A stretch of DNA of 64,000 bases from Escherichia coli (GTDB lineage Bacteria > Pseudomonadota > Gammaproteobacteria > Enterobacterales > Enterobacteriaceae). The notes beneath the pieces were generated by a model. That model was not told where the DNA came from and did no database searches. It worked only from the letters and a program-made list of their open reading frames with translations. The stretch is taken from the NCBI RefSeq assembly GCF_044324875.1, contig NZ_CP172185.1; one strand, written 5' to 3'. The translations under genes and the position numbers were made by a program. Below are positions 46,314-59,167 of this stretch, piece after piece. Within the stretch, counting starts at the first letter, position 1. The number at the start of each line of letters is the position of its first letter.

Positions 46314-46349
46314 CATAAAAAAAGCACGGTAAGGGGTCTACCGTGCTTT
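46314..46349 (-). terminator. Rho-independent terminator after mor
   Basis: On the minus strand: GCACGGTA-GACCCCTT-ACCGTGC followed by TTTTTTT. Confidence 0.6.
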
Positions 46350-46392: not shown

Positions 46393-46791
46393 TTATCTGG
46401 ATTTGTTAACGTCTTTCGTCTCCTCTGGCAGATCTTCATCAAACAACCTGCCCTGCATCCGATCCAGTTCTTCTTTTCTGACCCGCTTAACCACGCTGTA
46501 GACCCACTGAAGCGAAACACCAAACTTGCGGGCCAGTTCGTGGTGGTTGCGTCCGTTAAACTCCCTGAAGATTTCCCGGTCGCGCTGACTGACCTTCCAT
46601 ACCATGCCCATCGGGAAATAAACGTTTTGCCCGCCCCAGACCTGCATCATTCGGTTCGCGACGGCCTGACCAATCTGGTCGGCAATTGCGGGCTCAATAT
46701 CAATAATCTCGCGAACGGTCTCAGAGGTATGCTGTGCCAGCTCCACCAGGAGTTCCGGCCCTTTACTTCGAAACTGATTCAGGTCGCTCAT
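46393..46791 (-). CDS. mor: Mor/C-family transcription activator (Mu middle operon regulator-like)
   Basis: 132 aa with C-terminal HTH (ELARKFGVSLQWVYSVVKR) typical of Mor; last gene of the early operon, after gemA, as in Mu. Confidence 0.75.
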   Translation of the reverse strand: MSDLNQFRSKGPELLVELAQHTSETVREIIDIEPAIADQIGQAVANRMMQVWGGQNVYFPMGMVWKVSQRDREIFREFNGRNHHELARKFGVSLQWVYSVVKRVRKEELDRMQGRLFDEDLPEETKDVNKSR

Positions 46792-47215
46792 GTTTTACTC
46801 CCGCAGCTCTGTGCTGCCACTTCTTCAGTTTCTCAATAACACTGCTTGCCTGTTCAGTATTGAGCCAGCGCAGGGCGCTGATGCCCGTTTCCCGCTTGAT
46901 CCACCGCGCTAATGCATTTTCTGAACGGTCACGAACAATGCCGGCAGCAGCCATTTCAAGCCATAGCGCACGGATTTTCCTGGACTGCGGATGGTTATCC
47001 AGCGGTAAACCGGAGCTGGCTTTTCCGGCAGGCTTAACGCGAAAGCCTTTCCTTTTCATGGATTCCAGCACGCAGTTTAGTTGTGTGGTATCCATTCCTT
47101 TGGTTGAGGCTTTACCGGTCAGCCCCTGTAACATCTGGCGATAGGTGTCTTCATCCATACCCAGTTCATTACGGGCAATATGAATGAGCTGGATAAGACG
47201 TTGTTTAGTCATCAT
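46763..47215 (-). CDS. gemA: GemA-like phage regulatory protein (Mu gp16 family)
   Basis: Core RLIQLIHIARNELGMDEDTYRQML...SRKIRALWLE resembles Mu GemA; start placed at internal Met. Confidence 0.7.
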   Translation of the reverse strand: MMTKQRLIQLIHIARNELGMDEDTYRQMLQGLTGKASTKGMDTTQLNCVLESMKRKGFRVKPAGKASSGLPLDNHPQSRKIRALWLEMAAAGIVRDRSENALARWIKRETGISALRWLNTEQASSVIEKLKKWQHRAAGVKHERPESVSK

Positions 47216-47420
47216 CGTTGCTCCTTTTACCTGCGCCACCGATATAATCGACATATAAAGGAAGCGCCACAGGCCAGCACAGGAACATCACCGACCAGCT
47301 AATCCAGTAGCCGGCACCACTGTAACGTGAATAAAACCCTGAACGGCGGTGCAGTTCAGCAGTACACCAACCGACAAAACAATACCAGAACAGGGCACAT
47401 ACAACAGATTCAGCCGTCAT
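47205..47420 (-). CDS. Small phage membrane protein, hypothetical
   Basis: Hydrophobic 71-aa product from internal Met (MTAESVVCALFWYCFVGW...); the longer upstream extension overlaps the neighbouring gene. Confidence 0.4.
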   Translation of the reverse strand: MTAESVVCALFWYCFVGWCTAELHRRSGFYSRYSGAGYWISWSVMFLCWPVALPLYVDYIGGAGKRSNDDD

Positions 47421-53523: not shown

Positions 53524-54440
53524 TACTGCATGCCCTCCGGTCGGTTGATTTCAGGCTCCGGTTCGGTCAGCCATGCGGGGACATCGTTACCCGATGGTGC
53601 GGCATCAAGGTCGAACGTCTCACGCAATGCATGAACACTGCGTTCAATCTGGCAGACCAGACCGGCCATGAAATCTCTGGGGGTATCAATCATGTTTTTA
53701 CTGCAGTATTCACACAGGGTTTCAAAGGCACCGGAGAGCCGGACGGCGATGGCAGATTCCGCCTCAACCGCTAATGCGGTCACTTCCGCCCGCAGCTTCT
53801 TCACCTCTTCATCAGGCTCAGGCGGTTGAATACGGGATTTCTTCTCCAGTTTTGTGGCCAGTTCGTTGATTTTTTCGTCCTTTCCGGCAAGCACCTGTTG
53901 CTGAGCTGCGTTAGTTTCGCGCGCTTCACGCAGGGCCTGGCGAAGTTCACGTACTGACATGCGATCAACATCATCAAGCGTCAGGCCGGCAACTGTGCCG
54001 CCGTCGGCCAGTTCGGCAAGGTCTTCATCGTCTTCAGCAACAAGTTCAAATAATTTTGCCTTACCCAAAAGCGACAACGTTGTCGCTTTTGGCTCTAGTT
54101 TTGGTGAAAGGTATTTCAAAGATGCTTTCATCATTCGTTGTGCTGCGCGCACGTGCAAACCAAGTTGTTCTTCTACAATTCCAACAAAGTCCCCGTGTGG
54201 CTCATTTTCTTTTAAGATGATCAGCCGTTTACCCGCTTCCAGCATAGATTCAGCACTCTGCGCCATATAAAAACGTGCTTCGTGAACGATGCGATCACGT
54301 TCATAAGGCAGTCCATCACCAAACTGCTGCATGATCTCCATGCGATGCTGTGTCATGGCATTCAGGCTGACGTTGAGATCATCCGACAGCGGTACCTCGG
54401 CGTTCAGTTCAGTGTTAACCGGTGATTTGGTGCGTCCCAT
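53523..54440 (-). CDS. Hypothetical acidic, helix-rich phage early protein
   Basis: 305 aa with long charged helical segments; family not recognised. Confidence 0.55.
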   Translation of the reverse strand: MGRTKSPVNTELNAEVPLSDDLNVSLNAMTQHRMEIMQQFGDGLPYERDRIVHEARFYMAQSAESMLEAGKRLIILKENEPHGDFVGIVEEQLGLHVRAAQRMMKASLKYLSPKLEPKATTLSLLGKAKLFELVAEDDEDLAELADGGTVAGLTLDDVDRMSVRELRQALREARETNAAQQQVLAGKDEKINELATKLEKKSRIQPPEPDEEVKKLRAEVTALAVEAESAIAVRLSGAFETLCEYCSKNMIDTPRDFMAGLVCQIERSVHALRETFDLDAAPSGNDVPAWLTEPEPEINRPEGMQ

Positions 54441-54450
54441 TGATTACTCC

Positions 54451-54765
54451 TTACAAACGACTACCTGAAATGACACGTTGGTTGATTTCGTTAATGCGAT
54501 CCTGTGCACGTGCCATCTCGTTACTGTGGGCCATGGCGATCTGCAGCAACTGGATGCCCGGTGCGAAACGCCCGTTTTCCAGTTTCAGGGCCAGTCCTTC
54601 TTCAATGAGGGTGTTGAGTGCCCGGTTGATGTTTGCCGGTGACTCGTGCAGTGCTGCCGCCAGTTCACCATTGGAAATACCGTTCAGGGCATGACCGCGC
54701 AGCGCTTTGAGTACCCGGAGGATGCGACTGCCGGAGCTTGAAACATTCGTCTTACTCATCTGCAT
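54451..54765 (-). CDS. Putative winged-helix DNA-binding protein
   Basis: 104 aa; SRILRVLKAL...GISNGELAAALHESPANINRALNTLIEEGLA resembles IclR/MarR-type HTH regions; AGAGG SD present. Confidence 0.5.
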   Translation of the reverse strand: MQMSKTNVSSSGSRILRVLKALRGHALNGISNGELAAALHESPANINRALNTLIEEGLALKLENGRFAPGIQLLQIAMAHSNEMARAQDRINEINQRVISGSRL

Positions 54766-54811
54766 ACCTCTTTTGCGATATGTGATAACCTTTTACAAAG
54801 AATCAAAATAT

Positions 54812-55000
54812 TCAGGCTGCCTGAGCTGTTGATTTCAGCCCCAGTTTCACGGCGATTTCATGGGATTTACCGTAACGTGCTTTGCTCTGCCCATTGAGAA
54901 CGCGGTATACCTCATTGCGGTTGTAGCCGTTTTCTTCTGCCCAGCGGGTGAAAGTGATCCCGCGCTGGCGGAAGAGAGCTTTGACTTGTTCTGCAGTCAT
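54812..55000 (-). CDS. Ner-like (Cro-analog) DNA-binding protein
   Basis: 62 aa; strong SD AAGGAG 8 bp upstream; spacing of G-T/S, NG, and KxxIAxxLG residues parallels Ner/Nlp; divergent from the repressor. Confidence 0.6.
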   Translation of the reverse strand: MTAEQVKALFRQRGITFTRWAEENGYNRNEVYRVLNGQSKARYGKSHEIAVKLGLKSTAQAA

Positions 55001-55100
55001 CGTTGTCTCCTTTGTTGATGCAATGATGTTTGCCTTATGTGTGATAGATTATGGTGCAGATTATCTCACCAGTCAACTTAAAGAGTGCAGAAAAACTCAC
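55001..55100. promoter_or_regulatory. Divergent promoter/operator region between Ner-like gene and repressor
   Basis: 100-bp intergenic region containing GTGATAGATTAT and an inverted copy AGATTATCTCAC. Confidence 0.45.
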
Positions 55101-55439
55101 ATGATCGGGTTACGTATTAAAGAAGAAAGAGAGCGTCTATCTCTTACACAGCAAGGGTTGGCTGATGCTATCGGTGTGGCAAAGAGAACTTTTATTGATT
55201 GGGAAAAAGATCGCACTTCTCCTACTGCAGTGCAGTTATCTGCACTATCAGAAATCGGTGTAGATGTTTTGTATGTAGTTACTGGGGTGCGGAGTCAGCC
55301 TGTTGTTGCACCTTATATGTCACAAGAAAAGAAAGAGTTAATGGATGCATTCGACGAGATGAGCCCCGAACAACGGAGGGCAATTCTTGAGGTCGGCAAA
55401 GTCTTCATTCAACCCAAACCAAGCAAACTCGCAGGCTGA
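55101..55439 (+). CDS. Phage repressor, HTH_XRE (Cro/C1-type)
   Basis: Start at internal ATG (MIGLRIKEERERLSLTQQGLADAIGVAKRTFIDWEKDRTSP), 112 aa. Confidence 0.7.
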   Translation: MIGLRIKEERERLSLTQQGLADAIGVAKRTFIDWEKDRTSPTAVQLSALSEIGVDVLYVVTGVRSQPVVAPYMSQEKKELMDAFDEMSPEQRRAILEVGKVFIQPKPSKLAG

Positions 55440-55524
55440 TTCTGACCTGGACAGAAAGGACAGGTGGTTGATCTGGATGCTTTCAGAAAACGCCGTCAGT
55501 AGCATGGCAGAAATCGGCGGGCTT

Positions 55525-55560
55525 ACCGGAAAGCACTGTACTTTCCGGTTATGGCTTTTA
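55525..55560. terminator. Terminator between repressor and dam
   Basis: Hairpin ACCGGAAAG..CTTTCCGGT followed by a T-rich tract. Confidence 0.45.
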
Positions 55561-56322
55561 GAAATTGCAGATCACCAGCTCACGGCGTGGAGTTGATTTG
55601 CCTGCCAGACTGTAGTTGATGTTCACTGTCTGTATGTTCAGTCCAGTGAACACCTCGCGCATCTGCGGGATGTCGTTCACCGAAATTATCATCTTTCCTC
55701 TGATGCACCGGGCCAGCTCTGCCAGCCGCGAGTAGTTCCCTTCAGGAAAATCCACACCATAGCCTTCTGTACCCAGATACGGCGGGTCACAGTAGAACAG
55801 CGTGTGCGGACGGTCATAGCGCTCAATGCACTGTTGCCAGTCCATGTGTTCTATCACCGTTCTGGAAAGCCGCAGGTGTGCCGCTGACAGTTCTTCCTCG
55901 ATACGCAGCAGGTTGAAGCGTGGCGGGGATGTGGTGGAGGTGCCGAAGCTGTGCTCTGCCACCTTGCCGCCAAACGCCTGCTTCTGGAGGTAGTAGAACC
56001 GTGCTGCACGCTGGATATCCGTCAGTGTTTCTGTCGGGGTGATCTGCAGCCATTTGTAGATCTGCCGGCTGACCAGCGCCCATTTGAACTGGCGGACAAA
56101 TTCTTCCAGATGATGTTTTACCACCCGATACAGATTTACCAGTTCACCATTGATATCGTTAATGACTTCGAGCTTACCAGGTGTCTTAAGAAAATAGAGC
56201 GCTGCTGCGCCGCAGAACGGCTCCACGTAACATTCATGCGCCGGAAACAGCGGCAGGATGTGTTTTGCCAGGCGACGTTTGCCACCAATCCATGGAACGA
56301 TGGGTAATGTCTGCATTTTCAT
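55558..56322 (-). CDS. dam: DNA adenine methyltransferase (Dam-like, no adjacent restriction gene)
   Basis: 254 aa; SAM motif EPFCGAAALYF and catalytic DPPY. Confidence 0.85.
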   Translation of the reverse strand: MKMQTLPIVPWIGGKRRLAKHILPLFPAHECYVEPFCGAAALYFLKTPGKLEVINDINGELVNLYRVVKHHLEEFVRQFKWALVSRQIYKWLQITPTETLTDIQRAARFYYLQKQAFGGKVAEHSFGTSTTSPPRFNLLRIEEELSAAHLRLSRTVIEHMDWQQCIERYDRPHTLFYCDPPYLGTEGYGVDFPEGNYSRLAELARCIRGKMIISVNDIPQMREVFTGLNIQTVNINYSLAGKSTPRRELVICNF

Positions 56323-56514
56323 AATCTGTAAGCCTTTTACAATTATTAAAAATATGGCAGGCTAGTCTGGTCTCGCGAGACTGACTGAACCCCGGTCGGC
56401 TCACAGCGCATTCCTGTGGGACGATGGCCAGCCCGGTGGGTCCGAAGCACCGGGCTGGTCGTTCTTTCATGATGCGGCAGGGATGAAGTGATTTCTGTTA
56501 ATGTGGTTTAGGGA

Positions 56515-56730
56515 TTATCCGGGGCGATTTTCTGACCTTATCTGGTCCAGGGCATAAGTGATCCCTTCTGCAAAAACAGAAGTATCAAACTGCTTTTGTA
56601 TTTCCTGAAAATGAACAGTGGCACGACAGACACTCAGTTCTCCGCGATGTAACCGGATAATATCTTCCAGAACATTGTTCACTGCTTCGGCACGGCGCTG
56701 ATGTTCTGTTAACGTTAATCGGGGATTCAT
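56515..56730 (-). CDS. Hypothetical 71-aa phage protein
   Basis: Strong SD AAGGAG 6 bp upstream of ATG; no family recognised. Confidence 0.55.
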   Translation of the reverse strand: MNPRLTLTEHQRRAEAVNNVLEDIIRLHRGELSVCRATVHFQEIQKQFDTSVFAEGITYALDQIRSENRPG

Positions 56731-57107
56731 GATGCACTCCTTAAATGATGATTTTTATGTACTCACCGGCAAAATATTCTGCCGATTACTGAACACGCAT
56801 CCGGCTCCTCAGGTTTTGATTTATTCTGGTTTTTTCGATATCCCGGACCAGGTTGATCACGACAGAAAAAGTGCCGGTATTTTATTGATACGCTGATATG
56901 GCTTCGGGATAACAGCTATATTCGTTACTCTCAGTTGCTGGCTGTGGGAGCGGCTGATGTCGTCCTCACGGAAAAAACGCTCTGTCTGCTCAATGCCATG
57001 CCGACCTTTCTGCAGCCCCGGCCCGTACCATTTAAAGAGTCACTTCTGGATGCAGTAAAAACCGGTGAAAATGCAGTCATCGCTGAATGCGTATCCCGGA
57101 TTATGCG

Positions 57108-57656
57108 TTACGTGTTTAATGAACGTAAGTGAGGTTTATCCGCTGTCTGCATAATCCCGATAGCCAGTGCGAGGGGAAGCAATTCCGGGGAAACTCTTTC
57201 AAACAGCGATTCCCATTCTCCTCTCGCCATCACTCTGTCCAGCCCGCCCTCCAGCTGCATTTCAGCAATCTTCCTGATTTCCCGGAACAACGCCGCTTTG
57301 ATCTCTTCATGCTCAGCTTTATTTTCCGGTGTCAGAATGTATTCGTCGAAGAACCGGGGAGGCTGGTTAACGGGGGGCATGTTCACCGGGATGTGTTCCT
57401 GTATCCCGTACTCCGGGGCTGAAAAACATTTTGTTGTCTGACCGGTGAGTTTGCGTAACACCTTCATGAGTTGCTCCTGAAGCAGCTCATTCGTCCGACA
57501 GATACGCTCGTCGTCCACAACTGCGGCATCGACAATGACGCTTTTTCCAAATTCCTTTTTCACCATCTCTTTTATACGCGTCAGAACGTAACTTTTACCG
57601 CTGCCTACAGGCCCGGACACTCTGACGGTGATGGTCGGCTTCGGTGTGACTGTCAT
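57108..57656 (-). CDS. P-loop NTPase-like protein of unknown function (182 aa)
   Basis: Start at internal ATG with SD AAGGAGA 7 bp upstream; Walker A GPVGSGKS at residues 14-21; divergent from the lysis cassette. Confidence 0.6.
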   Translation of the reverse strand: MTVTPKPTITVRVSGPVGSGKSYVLTRIKEMVKKEFGKSVIVDAAVVDDERICRTNELLQEQLMKVLRKLTGQTTKCFSAPEYGIQEHIPVNMPPVNQPPRFFDEYILTPENKAEHEEIKAALFREIRKIAEMQLEGGLDRVMARGEWESLFERVSPELLPLALAIGIMQTADKPHLRSLNT

Positions 57657-57787
57657 TCTGTATCTCCTTTGTGAGTGATCCAGCGTGTATTCTGCATACC
57701 CCGAACACGCCTCTCTCTTAACGCGCTTTAAAATCCTCCGCGCCACGCTTTTGCCATGCTGTCTCCACACAACAAGGAGACATTTTC

Positions 57788-58138
57788 ATGAAACCATTCA
57801 CTTCCCTTATCGTTGACGTACAAAAAACCCGCCTGCGTGGATGGCTTGTTGCGGCCGTGCTGCTGCTCCTCATCATCGCGCTGGTCTCACCCCAGCAGTT
57901 GCCGGTGGTGGTGTACAAGCTCTCTCTCATCTCCCTCGCCGCCGTGCTCGGCTACTGGCTGGACCGCTCACTCTTCCCGAAGGCCCGTCCGGGGCAGTAC
58001 CTGAAGCATGACGAGCGCCTCATGGCTGAGGGGCGCTGGCCCGTACAGACCGGCCTTCACCTGGTGTTTTCTGCTGCGTTAATCCGCCGTGCACTGATTG
58101 TTGCAGCTGTCTGTCTGGCTGTTGCGATGGGGCTTTAA
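57788..58138 (+). CDS. Putative holin (membrane protein, first late/lysis gene)
   Basis: 116 aa with 2-3 hydrophobic helices; AAGGAGA SD; immediately precedes the endolysin. Confidence 0.55.
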   Translation: MKPFTSLIVDVQKTRLRGWLVAAVLLLLIIALVSPQQLPVVVYKLSLISLAAVLGYWLDRSLFPKARPGQYLKHDERLMAEGRWPVQTGLHLVFSAALIRRALIVAAVCLAVAMGL

Positions 58139-58140
58139 TC

Positions 58141-58875
58141 ATGAACTGGCCACAGAGCACCTGGATTGTATGCATGTCCCTGAAACTGGCTTTCGAAGCC
58201 TTTCTGGTCTTCATCAGAACCGAACGCCTGTCAGTCCGTGTCGGGACCTTTCTGGTTCATATGGCATGGGTATTCTTTGTCGCAATGTTGCTCTGGTGTG
58301 GCGGCTTCTTCAGTCAGGCCCGCGCAGCGCAGCCTCCGCAGGCTGCGCTGCAGTATCGCGATGATGTGATCCGTAATGCCCGGCTTGAATGGGGGCTGTC
58401 TGCGCCGGTGGCCGATTTCGCCGCGCAACTGCATCAGGAAAGCGGCTGGCGGACTGATGCGGTCTCGCCGGTGGGCGCTCAGGGGCTGGCGCAGTTTATG
58501 CCCGCCACCGCTGACTGGATAAGCCAGTTGATGCCGGCGTTGAGCAGTCGTGAGCCGTTTAATCCGGCATGGGCCATCCGGGCGCTGGTCAGCTATGACC
58601 GCTGGCTGTGGCAGCGCATCAGCGCCGCCAGTGACTGCGAGCGTATGGCCATGACACTGTCGGGCTATAACGGTGGTCTGGGTTGGGTACAACGGGACAG
58701 GCGGCTCGCATCACAGAAAGGTCTGGACAGCACCCGCTGGTTCGGACATGTCGCCACGGTGAATGCCGGACGCAATGCTGCCAGCTGGCGGGAGAACCGC
58801 CATTATCCGCAGCGCATCCTGCACGAACTGGCCCCCCGTTATCTGACATGGGGGGGCGGCAGCTGTGTGGACTAA
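58141..58875 (+). CDS. Endolysin, lytic transglycosylase (SLT domain), possibly signal-anchored
   Basis: QLHQESGWRTDAVSPVGAQGLAQFMP matches the SLT catalytic E-S...GLxQ motif; hydrophobic N-terminal segment. Start codon uncertain. Confidence 0.75.
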   Translation: MNWPQSTWIVCMSLKLAFEAFLVFIRTERLSVRVGTFLVHMAWVFFVAMLLWCGGFFSQARAAQPPQAALQYRDDVIRNARLEWGLSAPVADFAAQLHQESGWRTDAVSPVGAQGLAQFMPATADWISQLMPALSSREPFNPAWAIRALVSYDRWLWQRISAASDCERMAMTLSGYNGGLGWVQRDRRLASQKGLDSTRWFGHVATVNAGRNAASWRENRHYPQRILHELAPRYLTWGGGSCVD

Positions 58876-59167
58876 CCTGCTAAAAAATCTGCCGTGGCGC
58901 AGTCTGCTGCTGGCAGTGCTCATAAATGCTTTTCTGATTGGACTTTATTACCTGGGCTACAAAAGTGCAAAATGGCATCTGAATCGATCGCAGTTTGGCA
59001 TTCGAATCGATCATGATTTGGCATCCATCTCCGATCACAGTTTGGCATCACAATCGATCACGATTTGGCATGCTTCCGATCATTGATTGGCATCCTGCCA
59101 GTCACTCCGGGAATTAACTCTTTTCACCACAGTCTCCATTGCCGTGTTTAAACCAGTGGAGACGTCA

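Follow-up and report, generated by a model that had tools for sequence, protein, structure and literature searches.

The spacer between dam and a 71-aa gene in an Escherichia coli prophage holds a conserved RNA module that is read on the plus strand, antisense to dam, consists of four covarying helices, is inherited together with dam, and stands ahead of the probable late promoter of the phage. From these features we infer that a divergent non-coding RNA starts beside dam and ends at a terminator that insulates the lysis operon, a reading to which we give about an even chance. The window analysed here was the whole 64,000-nucleotide stretch of contig NZ_CP172185.1, and all positions are counted from its first base.

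Genetic setting of the spacer

Over this region, identity was 100% to E. coli chromosomes and 94% to Escherichia phage PhiKM, a phage classed in Bcepmuvirus; judged by sequence, the window represents a BcepMu-like transposable prophage. Its early operon runs leftward and encodes Ner-like, IclR-like HTH, DUF3102, transposase, MuB-like ATPase, Gam, GemA and Mor-family activator proteins, the last two (PF06252 and PF08765) at the distal end (46393-47254). The Mor-family protein is likely the activator of the late promoter. It was the single Mor/C-family protein among the early-region ORFs scanned; Mu itself has two such proteins, Mor and C. The HTH repressor gene (55101-55439) is transcribed rightward and has its own terminator-like hairpin at 55525-55549 on the plus strand (ACCGGAAAG...CTTTCCGGT followed by TATGGCTTTT); 9 nt separate it from the stop codon of dam. 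The two units, repressor and dam, converge, with no U-tract on the dam strand at this hairpin. Past dam come the spacer, the genes of the 71-aa and 220-aa proteins on the minus strand, and the holin/SLT endolysin/structural operon running rightward from 57788. The main features outside the RNA were as follows.

46393-46791, minus strand: Mor-family transcription activator (Pfam PF08765, E = 1e-43)
55558-56322, minus strand: dam, D12-class N6-adenine DNA methyltransferase (Pfam PF02086, E = 1e-28)
56469-56520, no strand assigned: degenerate partial copy of the late promoter, ATGATGCGG ... CTGTTAATGTGGTTTAGGGATTATCC, where compact relatives read CCATCATGCGG ... CTATTAACGCTGTTTAAAATCC
57689-57787, plus strand: probable late promoter and holin leader, conserved in all relatives

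A conserved module spans the palindrome and the hairpin

The spacer (56323-56514) is bordered by dam (55558-56322, minus strand) on one side and by the 71-aa ORF (56515-56730, minus strand) on the other. A first-pass annotation of the sequence had described a perfect palindrome and a long hairpin here, and both were present exactly where it had placed them: the palindrome GTCTCGCGAGAC at 56370-56381, and the hairpin at 56428-56458, with the arms CCAGCCCGGTG (56428-56438) and CACCGGGCTGG (56448-56458) around a 9-nt loop. The number of perfect 12-bp palindromes in the window (18, versus 16.3 +/- 3.7 in shuffles) was unremarkable on its own; hairpins whose stem was perfect over 11 bp or more were far above chance (14 versus 0.17). 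The palindrome and the hairpin were judged to be above chance because of their conservation. Further hairpins of this class were located at 46320, 54065, 58324, 9821, 14726, 26790, 28405 and 32848, three of them within the prophage.

Conservation of the block at about 56323-56470 exceeded that of the first part of the dam coding region. In the alignment with PhiKM, Klebsiella phage KP12 and phage Phi06 it ran from the dam ATG to about 56470 and ended abruptly after TCGTTCTTTCA in every relative, the flank beyond being unrelated, and the same boundary was found by BLAST in E. coli genomes and plasmids. The covariance model R1 scored 138.5 bits at 56346-56472, the sole copy in the window. The palindrome and the hairpin proved to be two stems of one folded RNA motif of about 110-125 bases.

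The module was carried by 555 of the 5426 complete E. coli genomes. Among 60 viral contigs picked by a 15-mer scan, 47 were true homologues (36 distinct), and 27 genomes from about 15 Enterobacterales genera also had the module. Divergent copies were added by a holin-anchored scan and a degenerate-pattern scan, with one genome per species, and came from Serratia, Xenorhabdus, Photorhabdus, Arsenophonus, Symbiopectobacterium, Brenneria, Salmonella diarizonae, Citrobacter, Pantoea, Mixta, Erwinia and others. The search of Rfam 15 gave no covariance-model match at E <= 10 in positions 54000-59000 of the window, and nothing relevant at E <= 1 for four divergent loci, where only eukaryotic miRNA and snoRNA matches at chance level appeared. 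The literature search with the invariant 21-mer found no paper, and text searches on BcepMu late transcription and on small RNAs of Mu-like prophages returned nothing relevant.

One viral contig (L116) contained two copies of the element, at 732-855 and 1367-1490; the divergent copy (78 bits) lies beside dam and the window-type copy (145 bits) beside the 71-aa gene. The double copy is consistent with cassette exchange through recombination at the element.

Four helices supported by covariation

RNAalifold and the covariance model agreed on four helices, SL1, P, SL2 and SL3. The module begins with a short 5' end and SL1; next comes a three-way junction of helix P, SL2 and SL3, which P closes, and last a U-rich tail.

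56346-56472, plus strand: the whole conserved RNA module, delimited by covariance model R1, alignments and block boundaries
56364-56386, plus strand: SL1, AGUC.UG-GUCU(CGCG)AGAC-UGACU, with the palindrome 56370-56381 as its tip; 6 of 9 pairs covary
56387-56390, plus strand: 5' strand of helix P, GAAC, whose partner is GUUC at 56461-56464
56395-56425, plus strand: SL2, GGUCG.CUCACAG, a 7-nt hypervariable loop, and CUGUGGG.CGAU
56426-56460, plus strand: SL3, the terminator hairpin, comprising the hairpin 56428-56458 and two additional pairs
56461-56470, plus strand: tail GUUCUUUCAU, whose first four bases are the 3' strand of helix P and are followed by the U-rich tract

In the alignment of 37 distinct sequences, 97.7% of the cells were paired, and 15 of the 36 pairs changed on both sides, compared to 7.6 +/- 1.6 in shuffles; none of 500 shuffles reached the observed value by any measure. 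When the partner was moved by 1-3 columns as a control, only 25-53% of the cells could pair.

The outer stem of SL1, in which an asymmetric bulge is conserved, showed the compensatory change of AGUC/GACU to UUCC/GGAA, and its tip occurred as GTCATCGATGAC, GTTCTCGAGAAC and GUUCU-CGCG-GGAAC, the last containing a U-G pair formed on the plus strand only. Helix P changed from GAAC/GUUC to GAGC/GCUC, again by compensation, in nine distinct sequences. The stem of SL2 was nearly invariant in sequence around a freely variable loop of 6-7 nt, and its one-sided changes gave G-U pairs on the plus strand only. In SL3, 7 of 12 pairs covaried, with the compensatory versions GGUG/CACC, GGC/GCC, GGA/UCC and CCGGUCCGG/CCGGACCGG, and the loop was hypervariable like that of SL2. 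The first-pass annotation had proposed an RNA fold prediction and a look at related prophages as checks; the former gave four covarying helices with both reported features among the stems, and the latter showed the module to be kept across E. coli, viral contigs and about 15 Enterobacterales genera.

The SL1 tip took several forms. Four perfect palindromes occurred along with variants that pair through G-U only, a non-palindromic loop in one locus (L131), and a replaced tip in Photorhabdus, where the palindrome is swapped for two or three tandem AATCAAT repeats (L147, L150, L153, L168 and L173). Read on the minus strand, these repeats give TTGATG/TTGATT hexamers 17 bp upstream of the predicted -10 of dam.

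Three other readings of these stems were discarded. A riboswitch-like alternative, in which the 3' arm of SL1 pairs with the 5' base of SL2 in the minimum free energy fold of the window, lost its pairing in divergent homologues. Pairing between SL1 and the holin leader was suggested by GUCUC/GAGAC in both, but the two do not co-vary. As a DNA site, CACAG-N7-CTGTG has the reverse order of the LexA box, and its loop length varies between 6 and 7 nt.

The module is read on the plus strand and ends in a terminator-like structure

All evidence on the strand agreed. Cells with G-U on the plus strand numbered 186 in 20 pairs, whereas A-C cells, which would be G-U on the minus strand, numbered only 14 in 9 pairs. 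The consensus fold by RNAalifold was -36.4 kcal/mol on the plus strand and -25.6 kcal/mol on the minus strand, the plus strand being more stable in 36 of the 37 sequences. For the window sequence alone the values were -56.2 kcal/mol (z = -3.25) and -43.9 kcal/mol (z = -1.61), and for SL3, with its stem of 12-14 bp, -29.7 and -22.9 kcal/mol, respectively. The structures had previously been assigned to the minus-strand transcript of dam and the 71-aa gene; the G-U pairs, the fold energies and the U-rich tail favour the opposite strand.

In the 10 nt past SL3, the 55 distinct homologues had 4-7 U on the plus strand and 1-3 U on the minus strand. The earlier remark that a T-tract is missing on the minus strand was therefore correct, and the conclusion that the hairpin is not an obvious terminator holds for that strand but fails for the plus strand, on which a terminator scanner called a site in the window. 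The same scanner also called the Serratia homologue, with a 14-bp stem and the tail CTCTTTTTAC. SL3 is a stable GC-rich stem-loop with a U-rich tract directly 3' of it on the plus strand, as expected of an intrinsic terminator. TCGTTCTTTCA was invariant in the close clade and GCUCUUUU was found in distant clades, and the tails of distant homologues read CUCUUUUUU or CUCUUUUUACG. In the clade of the window the U-tract is interrupted (GUUCUUUCA), and the window tail GUUCUUUCAU is a mediocre U-tract. Taken together, the G-U bias, the fold energies and the U-tail on the plus strand point to the reported hairpin as a probable intrinsic terminator for rightward transcription. Termination would take place at SL3 and the tail, with the predicted 3' end near 56466-56469.

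A candidate bidirectional promoter shared with dam

56348-56354, both strands: putative shared -10 box, AAAAAT at 56348-56353 on the plus strand and TATTTT at 56354-56349 on the minus strand

The A-N3-T pair of this box was kept in nearly all homologues, as GAAAAT, AAAAAT or GAAATT on the plus strand; on the minus strand the box reads TATTTT or CATTTT. Its spacing to the dam Shine-Dalgarno sequence was fixed, as was that to the dam ATG (25-26 nt), and the distance to SL1 varied by 12 nt in one clade. Bidirectional promoters, as the work of Warman et al. 2021 is cited in PMC10268837, have A(-11) and T(-7) paired reciprocally and start sites 18 bp apart. The reciprocal -10 hexamers at 56348-56354 match this 18-bp rule in the form given there (PMC10268837), and the box is compatible with a bidirectional promoter from which dam would be transcribed leftward and the RNA rightward. 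The predicted start sites lie near 56359-56360 on the plus strand (AGGCU...) and near 56342-56343 for dam, which would give dam an untranslated region of about 20 nt and a rightward RNA of about 108 nt.

A conserved -35 element was found for neither direction, and scanning the upstream 950 nt of 15 relatives gave no conserved -35/-10 pair for the plus strand; its only recurring hit was AT-rich coding sequence about 680 nt inside dam. The classical sigma-70 candidate on the plus strand, TTTTCA-16-TACAAT, was rejected, as it is restricted to the window clade and reads TGCAAT, TCATAG or TCCATT elsewhere. A sigma-54 reading was also rejected, since no -12 element accompanies TGGCA, which itself lacks conservation.

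Linkage to dam and position relative to the late promoter

The distance between the start of the model and the dam ATG, which is on the other strand, was 24 nt in 24 of the 27 genomes and in most viral contigs. The exceptions were two genomes of the clade with the 12-nt insertion, where the distance was 34-36 nt, and one genome with a truncated dam. All 11 holin loci without dam (L068, L069, L073, L074, L077, L091, L097, L134, L135, L138 and L139) were also without the element. On the other hand, the element was kept where cargo genes on the plus strand replace dam (L108, L110 and L131); in L131 a lipoprotein-like gene on the plus strand ends at the start of the element. In another locus with dam replaced by plus-strand cargo (L136), only SL3 and the tail were kept. 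Retention behind plus-strand genes and absence without dam fit a need to stop plus-strand transcription ahead of the late promoter.

Holin is encoded on the same strand as the element, and its ATG follows the element by 97-102 nt in compact relatives, whose layout is probably ancestral. About 110 nt upstream of holin were conserved in every relative, irrespective of the presence of dam or of inserted genes, and contained the box CCATC(A/C)TGC, about 20 nt, CTnTTAACGCnnTTTAAAATCC, and a hairpin GTCTCC/GGAGAC over the holin Shine-Dalgarno sequence. In the window the box ATTCTGCA is at 57689-57696, the -10 sequence TAAAAT at 57729-57734, and the hairpin GCTGTCTCC/GGAGACA at 57758-57782 covers the Shine-Dalgarno sequence of holin, an arrangement that suggests translational control of holin. 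Since a good -10 sequence is present without a -35 and the phage encodes a Mor-family activator, the region would most simply be an activator-dependent late promoter. The tail of the element abuts the conserved box CCATCATGCG in compact relatives and overlaps the upstream box in Photorhabdus; the -10 TAAAAT that comes after this box is common to all relatives.

The remnant of the late promoter at 56469-56520 directly follows the element in the window, indicating that the cassette of the 71-aa and 220-aa genes was inserted inside the promoter region. The 71-aa gene was missing from most relatives. Its treatment in the first-pass annotation as a member of the unit could not be maintained, as it is a late insertion into the probably ancestral compact layout of dam, element and holin promoter.

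The interval between the element terminator and the late promoter (56469-57770 in the window) is a hot spot for accessory genes. The same insertion point was used in L003, L012, L037, L048, L053, L108 and L131, where the cargo consisted of unrelated genes of 65-314 aa on either strand. The cargo of the window encodes the 71-aa protein (phrog_4490) and the 220-aa P-loop NTPase (phrog_3787). The Pfam scan of the 71-aa protein gave no match, and assignment of the inserted genes to a defence system was not adopted, as PADLOC gave only a marginal match of the 220-aa protein to SngB (E = 6e-4). The sequence GATC is absent from 56323-56514, so Dam autoregulation via GATC in the spacer was dismissed.

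Alternative explanations

The main rival to the insulator reading accepts the RNA as described and sees its chief role as that of a functional small RNA, acting in protein binding or in the regulation of dam or phage development, with the terminator merely forming its 3' end. We consider this possible but doubtful. SL1, SL2 and helix P covary across genera, more than termination requires; a near-invariant SL2 stem beneath a hypervariable loop is expected of a sequence-specific protein contact, an internal U-G/U-U pair is conserved, and the compact, almost fully paired architecture resembles that of stable sRNAs. Against it, the longest conserved single-stranded seed is about 5 nt (AGGCU), which makes a base-pairing role in trans unlikely, no Rfam relative exists, and in Xenorhabdus-type phages the sequence shared by SL1 and the holin leader (GUCUC/GAGAC) shows no covariation. 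A DNA-level explanation would make the palindrome the operator of a dimeric regulator over the -35 region of the dam promoter, leaving the RNA fold of SL1 secondary. Indeed, the tip of SL1 is a perfect DNA palindrome in four versions (GTCTCGCGAGAC, GTCATCGATGAC, GTTCTCGAGAAC and GTTCTCGCGAGAAC), the loop being self-complementary in each, which an RNA hairpin does not require, and the tip is placed at the -35 position, about 28-39 bp ahead of the start site predicted for dam. This explanation is nevertheless unlikely: several variants, GTCGTCGATGAC and GTTCTCGCGGGAAC among them, break the DNA symmetry yet pair as RNA via G-U on the plus strand, the L131 loop is non-palindromic, the Photorhabdus tip consists of AT-rich repeats, an asymmetric bulge is conserved in the outer stem, and palindromes of 12 bp are no more frequent in the window than expected by chance. 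An immunity operator in particular is contradicted by the identity of the palindrome in phages whose repressors are 34-49% identical.

The first-pass annotation had suggested a regulatory site or processing structure, of which the conserved, structured regulatory element stands and the placement on the minus transcript does not. In that explanation the structures belong to the mRNA of the 71-aa gene and dam, or to the 5' UTR of dam, and serve processing, stabilization or translational control. The 220-aa, 71-aa and dam genes have the same orientation in the window, and one transcript could run through all of them and the spacer; the hairpin can fold on the minus strand too (-22.9 kcal/mol), and a related Dam, that of Pseudomonas phage B3, is annotated with the translational regulator Com. 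We consider it quite unlikely all the same, as the G-U versus A-C asymmetry and the fold energies favour the plus strand, most relatives have no 71-aa gene and their element abuts the late promoter, leaving no room for an upstream minus-strand promoter, and the conserved -10 box, 26 bp from the dam ATG, would place the element upstream of the dam start. Moreover, the 71-aa protein, with no Pfam match and a single Cys, is not Com-like. The element could also be the leader and regulated terminator of the late operon, in the manner of lambda PR'-6S RNA-tR', with antitermination reaching the late genes, given that the element shares its strand with holin, precedes it by 97-102 nt in compact relatives, and has a terminator at its end. 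This is very improbable when a promoter-like region separates terminator and holin in all relatives, even those without the element, when the phage has a Mor-type activator and no Q-like protein was seen among the early genes scanned, when 1.3 kb of opposite-strand genes intervene in the window, and when the alternative pairing of the minimum free energy fold is not conserved. Finally, protein coding, either by the 78-aa minus-strand ORF at 56234-56470 or by an N-terminal extension of Dam, deserves hardly any credence. The start ATG-AAA-GAA-CGA of the ORF does fall on the block boundary, and the dam of PhiKM (PQ738613; L001, 6148-7002) is annotated 90 nt longer than that of the window and reaches into the element. 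Insertions and deletions of 1 nt in the loops of SL2 and SL3, however, shift every minus-strand frame between close relatives, many of which also have stop codons, so that neither the ORF nor the extension is credible, and in the window the dam frame, followed upstream from 56322, meets a stop before any start codon. The extended PhiKM dam is probably a mis-called start, as the frames there are not conserved.

The insulator reading, favoured here at about even chance, explains the strand and position of the module, its co-inheritance with dam, its absence where dam is absent, and its retention behind plus-strand genes. Some observations do not sit easily with it. A plain terminator needs neither SL1, SL2 nor a three-way junction, and termination alone leaves the covariation of SL1, SL2 and the junction and the invariance of the SL2 stem unaccounted for. 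The relatives without dam manage without the element, and with 1.3 kb of minus-strand genes between the element and the late promoter, insulation in the window is less direct.

Discussion

To our knowledge, regulation in BcepMu-like transposable prophages has been little studied, although they are common in Enterobacterales. The present analysis defines a conserved RNA motif, previously unannotated, that is supported by covariation and matches no Rfam family. It also establishes that the motif keeps a fixed position between dam of the phage and the late promoter, and it delimits a probable late promoter with a holin leader. In the proposed mechanism, the RNA would begin at the bidirectional -10 box that also serves as the dam promoter. 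RNA polymerase heading rightward from the dam promoter region, or from the immunity side, would transcribe the tightly folded RNA and stop at SL3, helix P and the U-tract, at the upstream edge of the activator-dependent late promoter, and the holin, endolysin and structural genes would thereby be kept silent in the lysogen. If this is true, it shows that a bidirectional-promoter cassette can adjoin lysis genes without killing the lysogen.

The conservation of SL1, SL2 and the junction beyond what termination needs implies that the RNA may have a second role, such as protein binding, stability or competition at the bidirectional promoter; any additional function would make it a new riboregulator of phage origin. 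Carried further, and only as a tentative suggestion, the element might represent a new family of phage structured small RNA with a three-way junction and a sequence-invariant SL2 stem, made in lysogens from the bidirectional promoter of dam, and binding a phage or host protein or controlling the lysis-lysogeny or dam/late-gene decision of BcepMu-like transposable prophages. Such a family would be carried by about one in ten of the complete E. coli genomes searched. The motif model also helps annotators to avoid spurious ORFs, such as the extended dam of PhiKM, and marks the accessory-gene hot spot.

The element belongs to a known kind, the structured phage non-coding RNA with a terminator. It resembles intrinsic (Rho-independent) terminator insulators in having a GC-rich hairpin (14 bp, -29.7 kcal/mol) and a U-rich tract just before a promoter that has to be silent in the lysogen. 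Unlike those insulators, the hairpin here is an arm of a three-way junction whose closing helix takes in the first bases of the tail, an extra conserved stem-loop precedes it, and the U-tract is interrupted (GUUCUUUCA) in the window clade. The module is also like the divergent transcripts of bidirectional sigma-70 promoters, as these are described in PMC10268837, with one A/T-rich -10 and predicted starts 18 bp apart for an mRNA (dam) and a non-coding RNA. It differs from the typical by-product transcripts of that description (PMC10268837) in that the structure of its RNA is strongly conserved across genera, and its start sites are predicted ones. A leader of the lambda PR'-tR' type is a poor match, because the late promoter lies downstream of the terminator and is also present without the element.

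The RNAs sar of P22, oop of lambda, C4 of P1/P7 and CI of P4 are, like the present one, short, structured and terminated, and come from the regulatory region of a temperate phage opposite a neighbouring gene. They act by base-pairing with an overlapping or complementary transcript. Unlike these, the RNA described here is not overlapped by the predicted dam mRNA, has no conserved single-stranded seed, and is similar to them neither in sequence nor by Rfam. With dam predicted to start at about 56342 and the RNA at about 56360, the start of dam falls outside the RNA, and the two would overlap only if dam were also read from upstream, which is possible in the 220-aa/71-aa/dam arrangement of the window.

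The com-mom system of Mu and the com-dam system of B3 share with this prophage a transposable phage, a DNA-modification gene and a conserved RNA structure beside its start. In contrast to them, a Com-like zinc-finger gene is missing here, and the structure is opposite the methylase mRNA and upstream of its predicted start; control of the com-mom type does not apply, because Com is absent and the strand is wrong. The Dam of the Pseudomonas transposable phage B3 (AF232233, 26018-26779) is 63% identical to that of the window and is annotated with Com, and the Dam of the window has no such partner, so related methylases seem to be differently controlled in different Mu-like phages.
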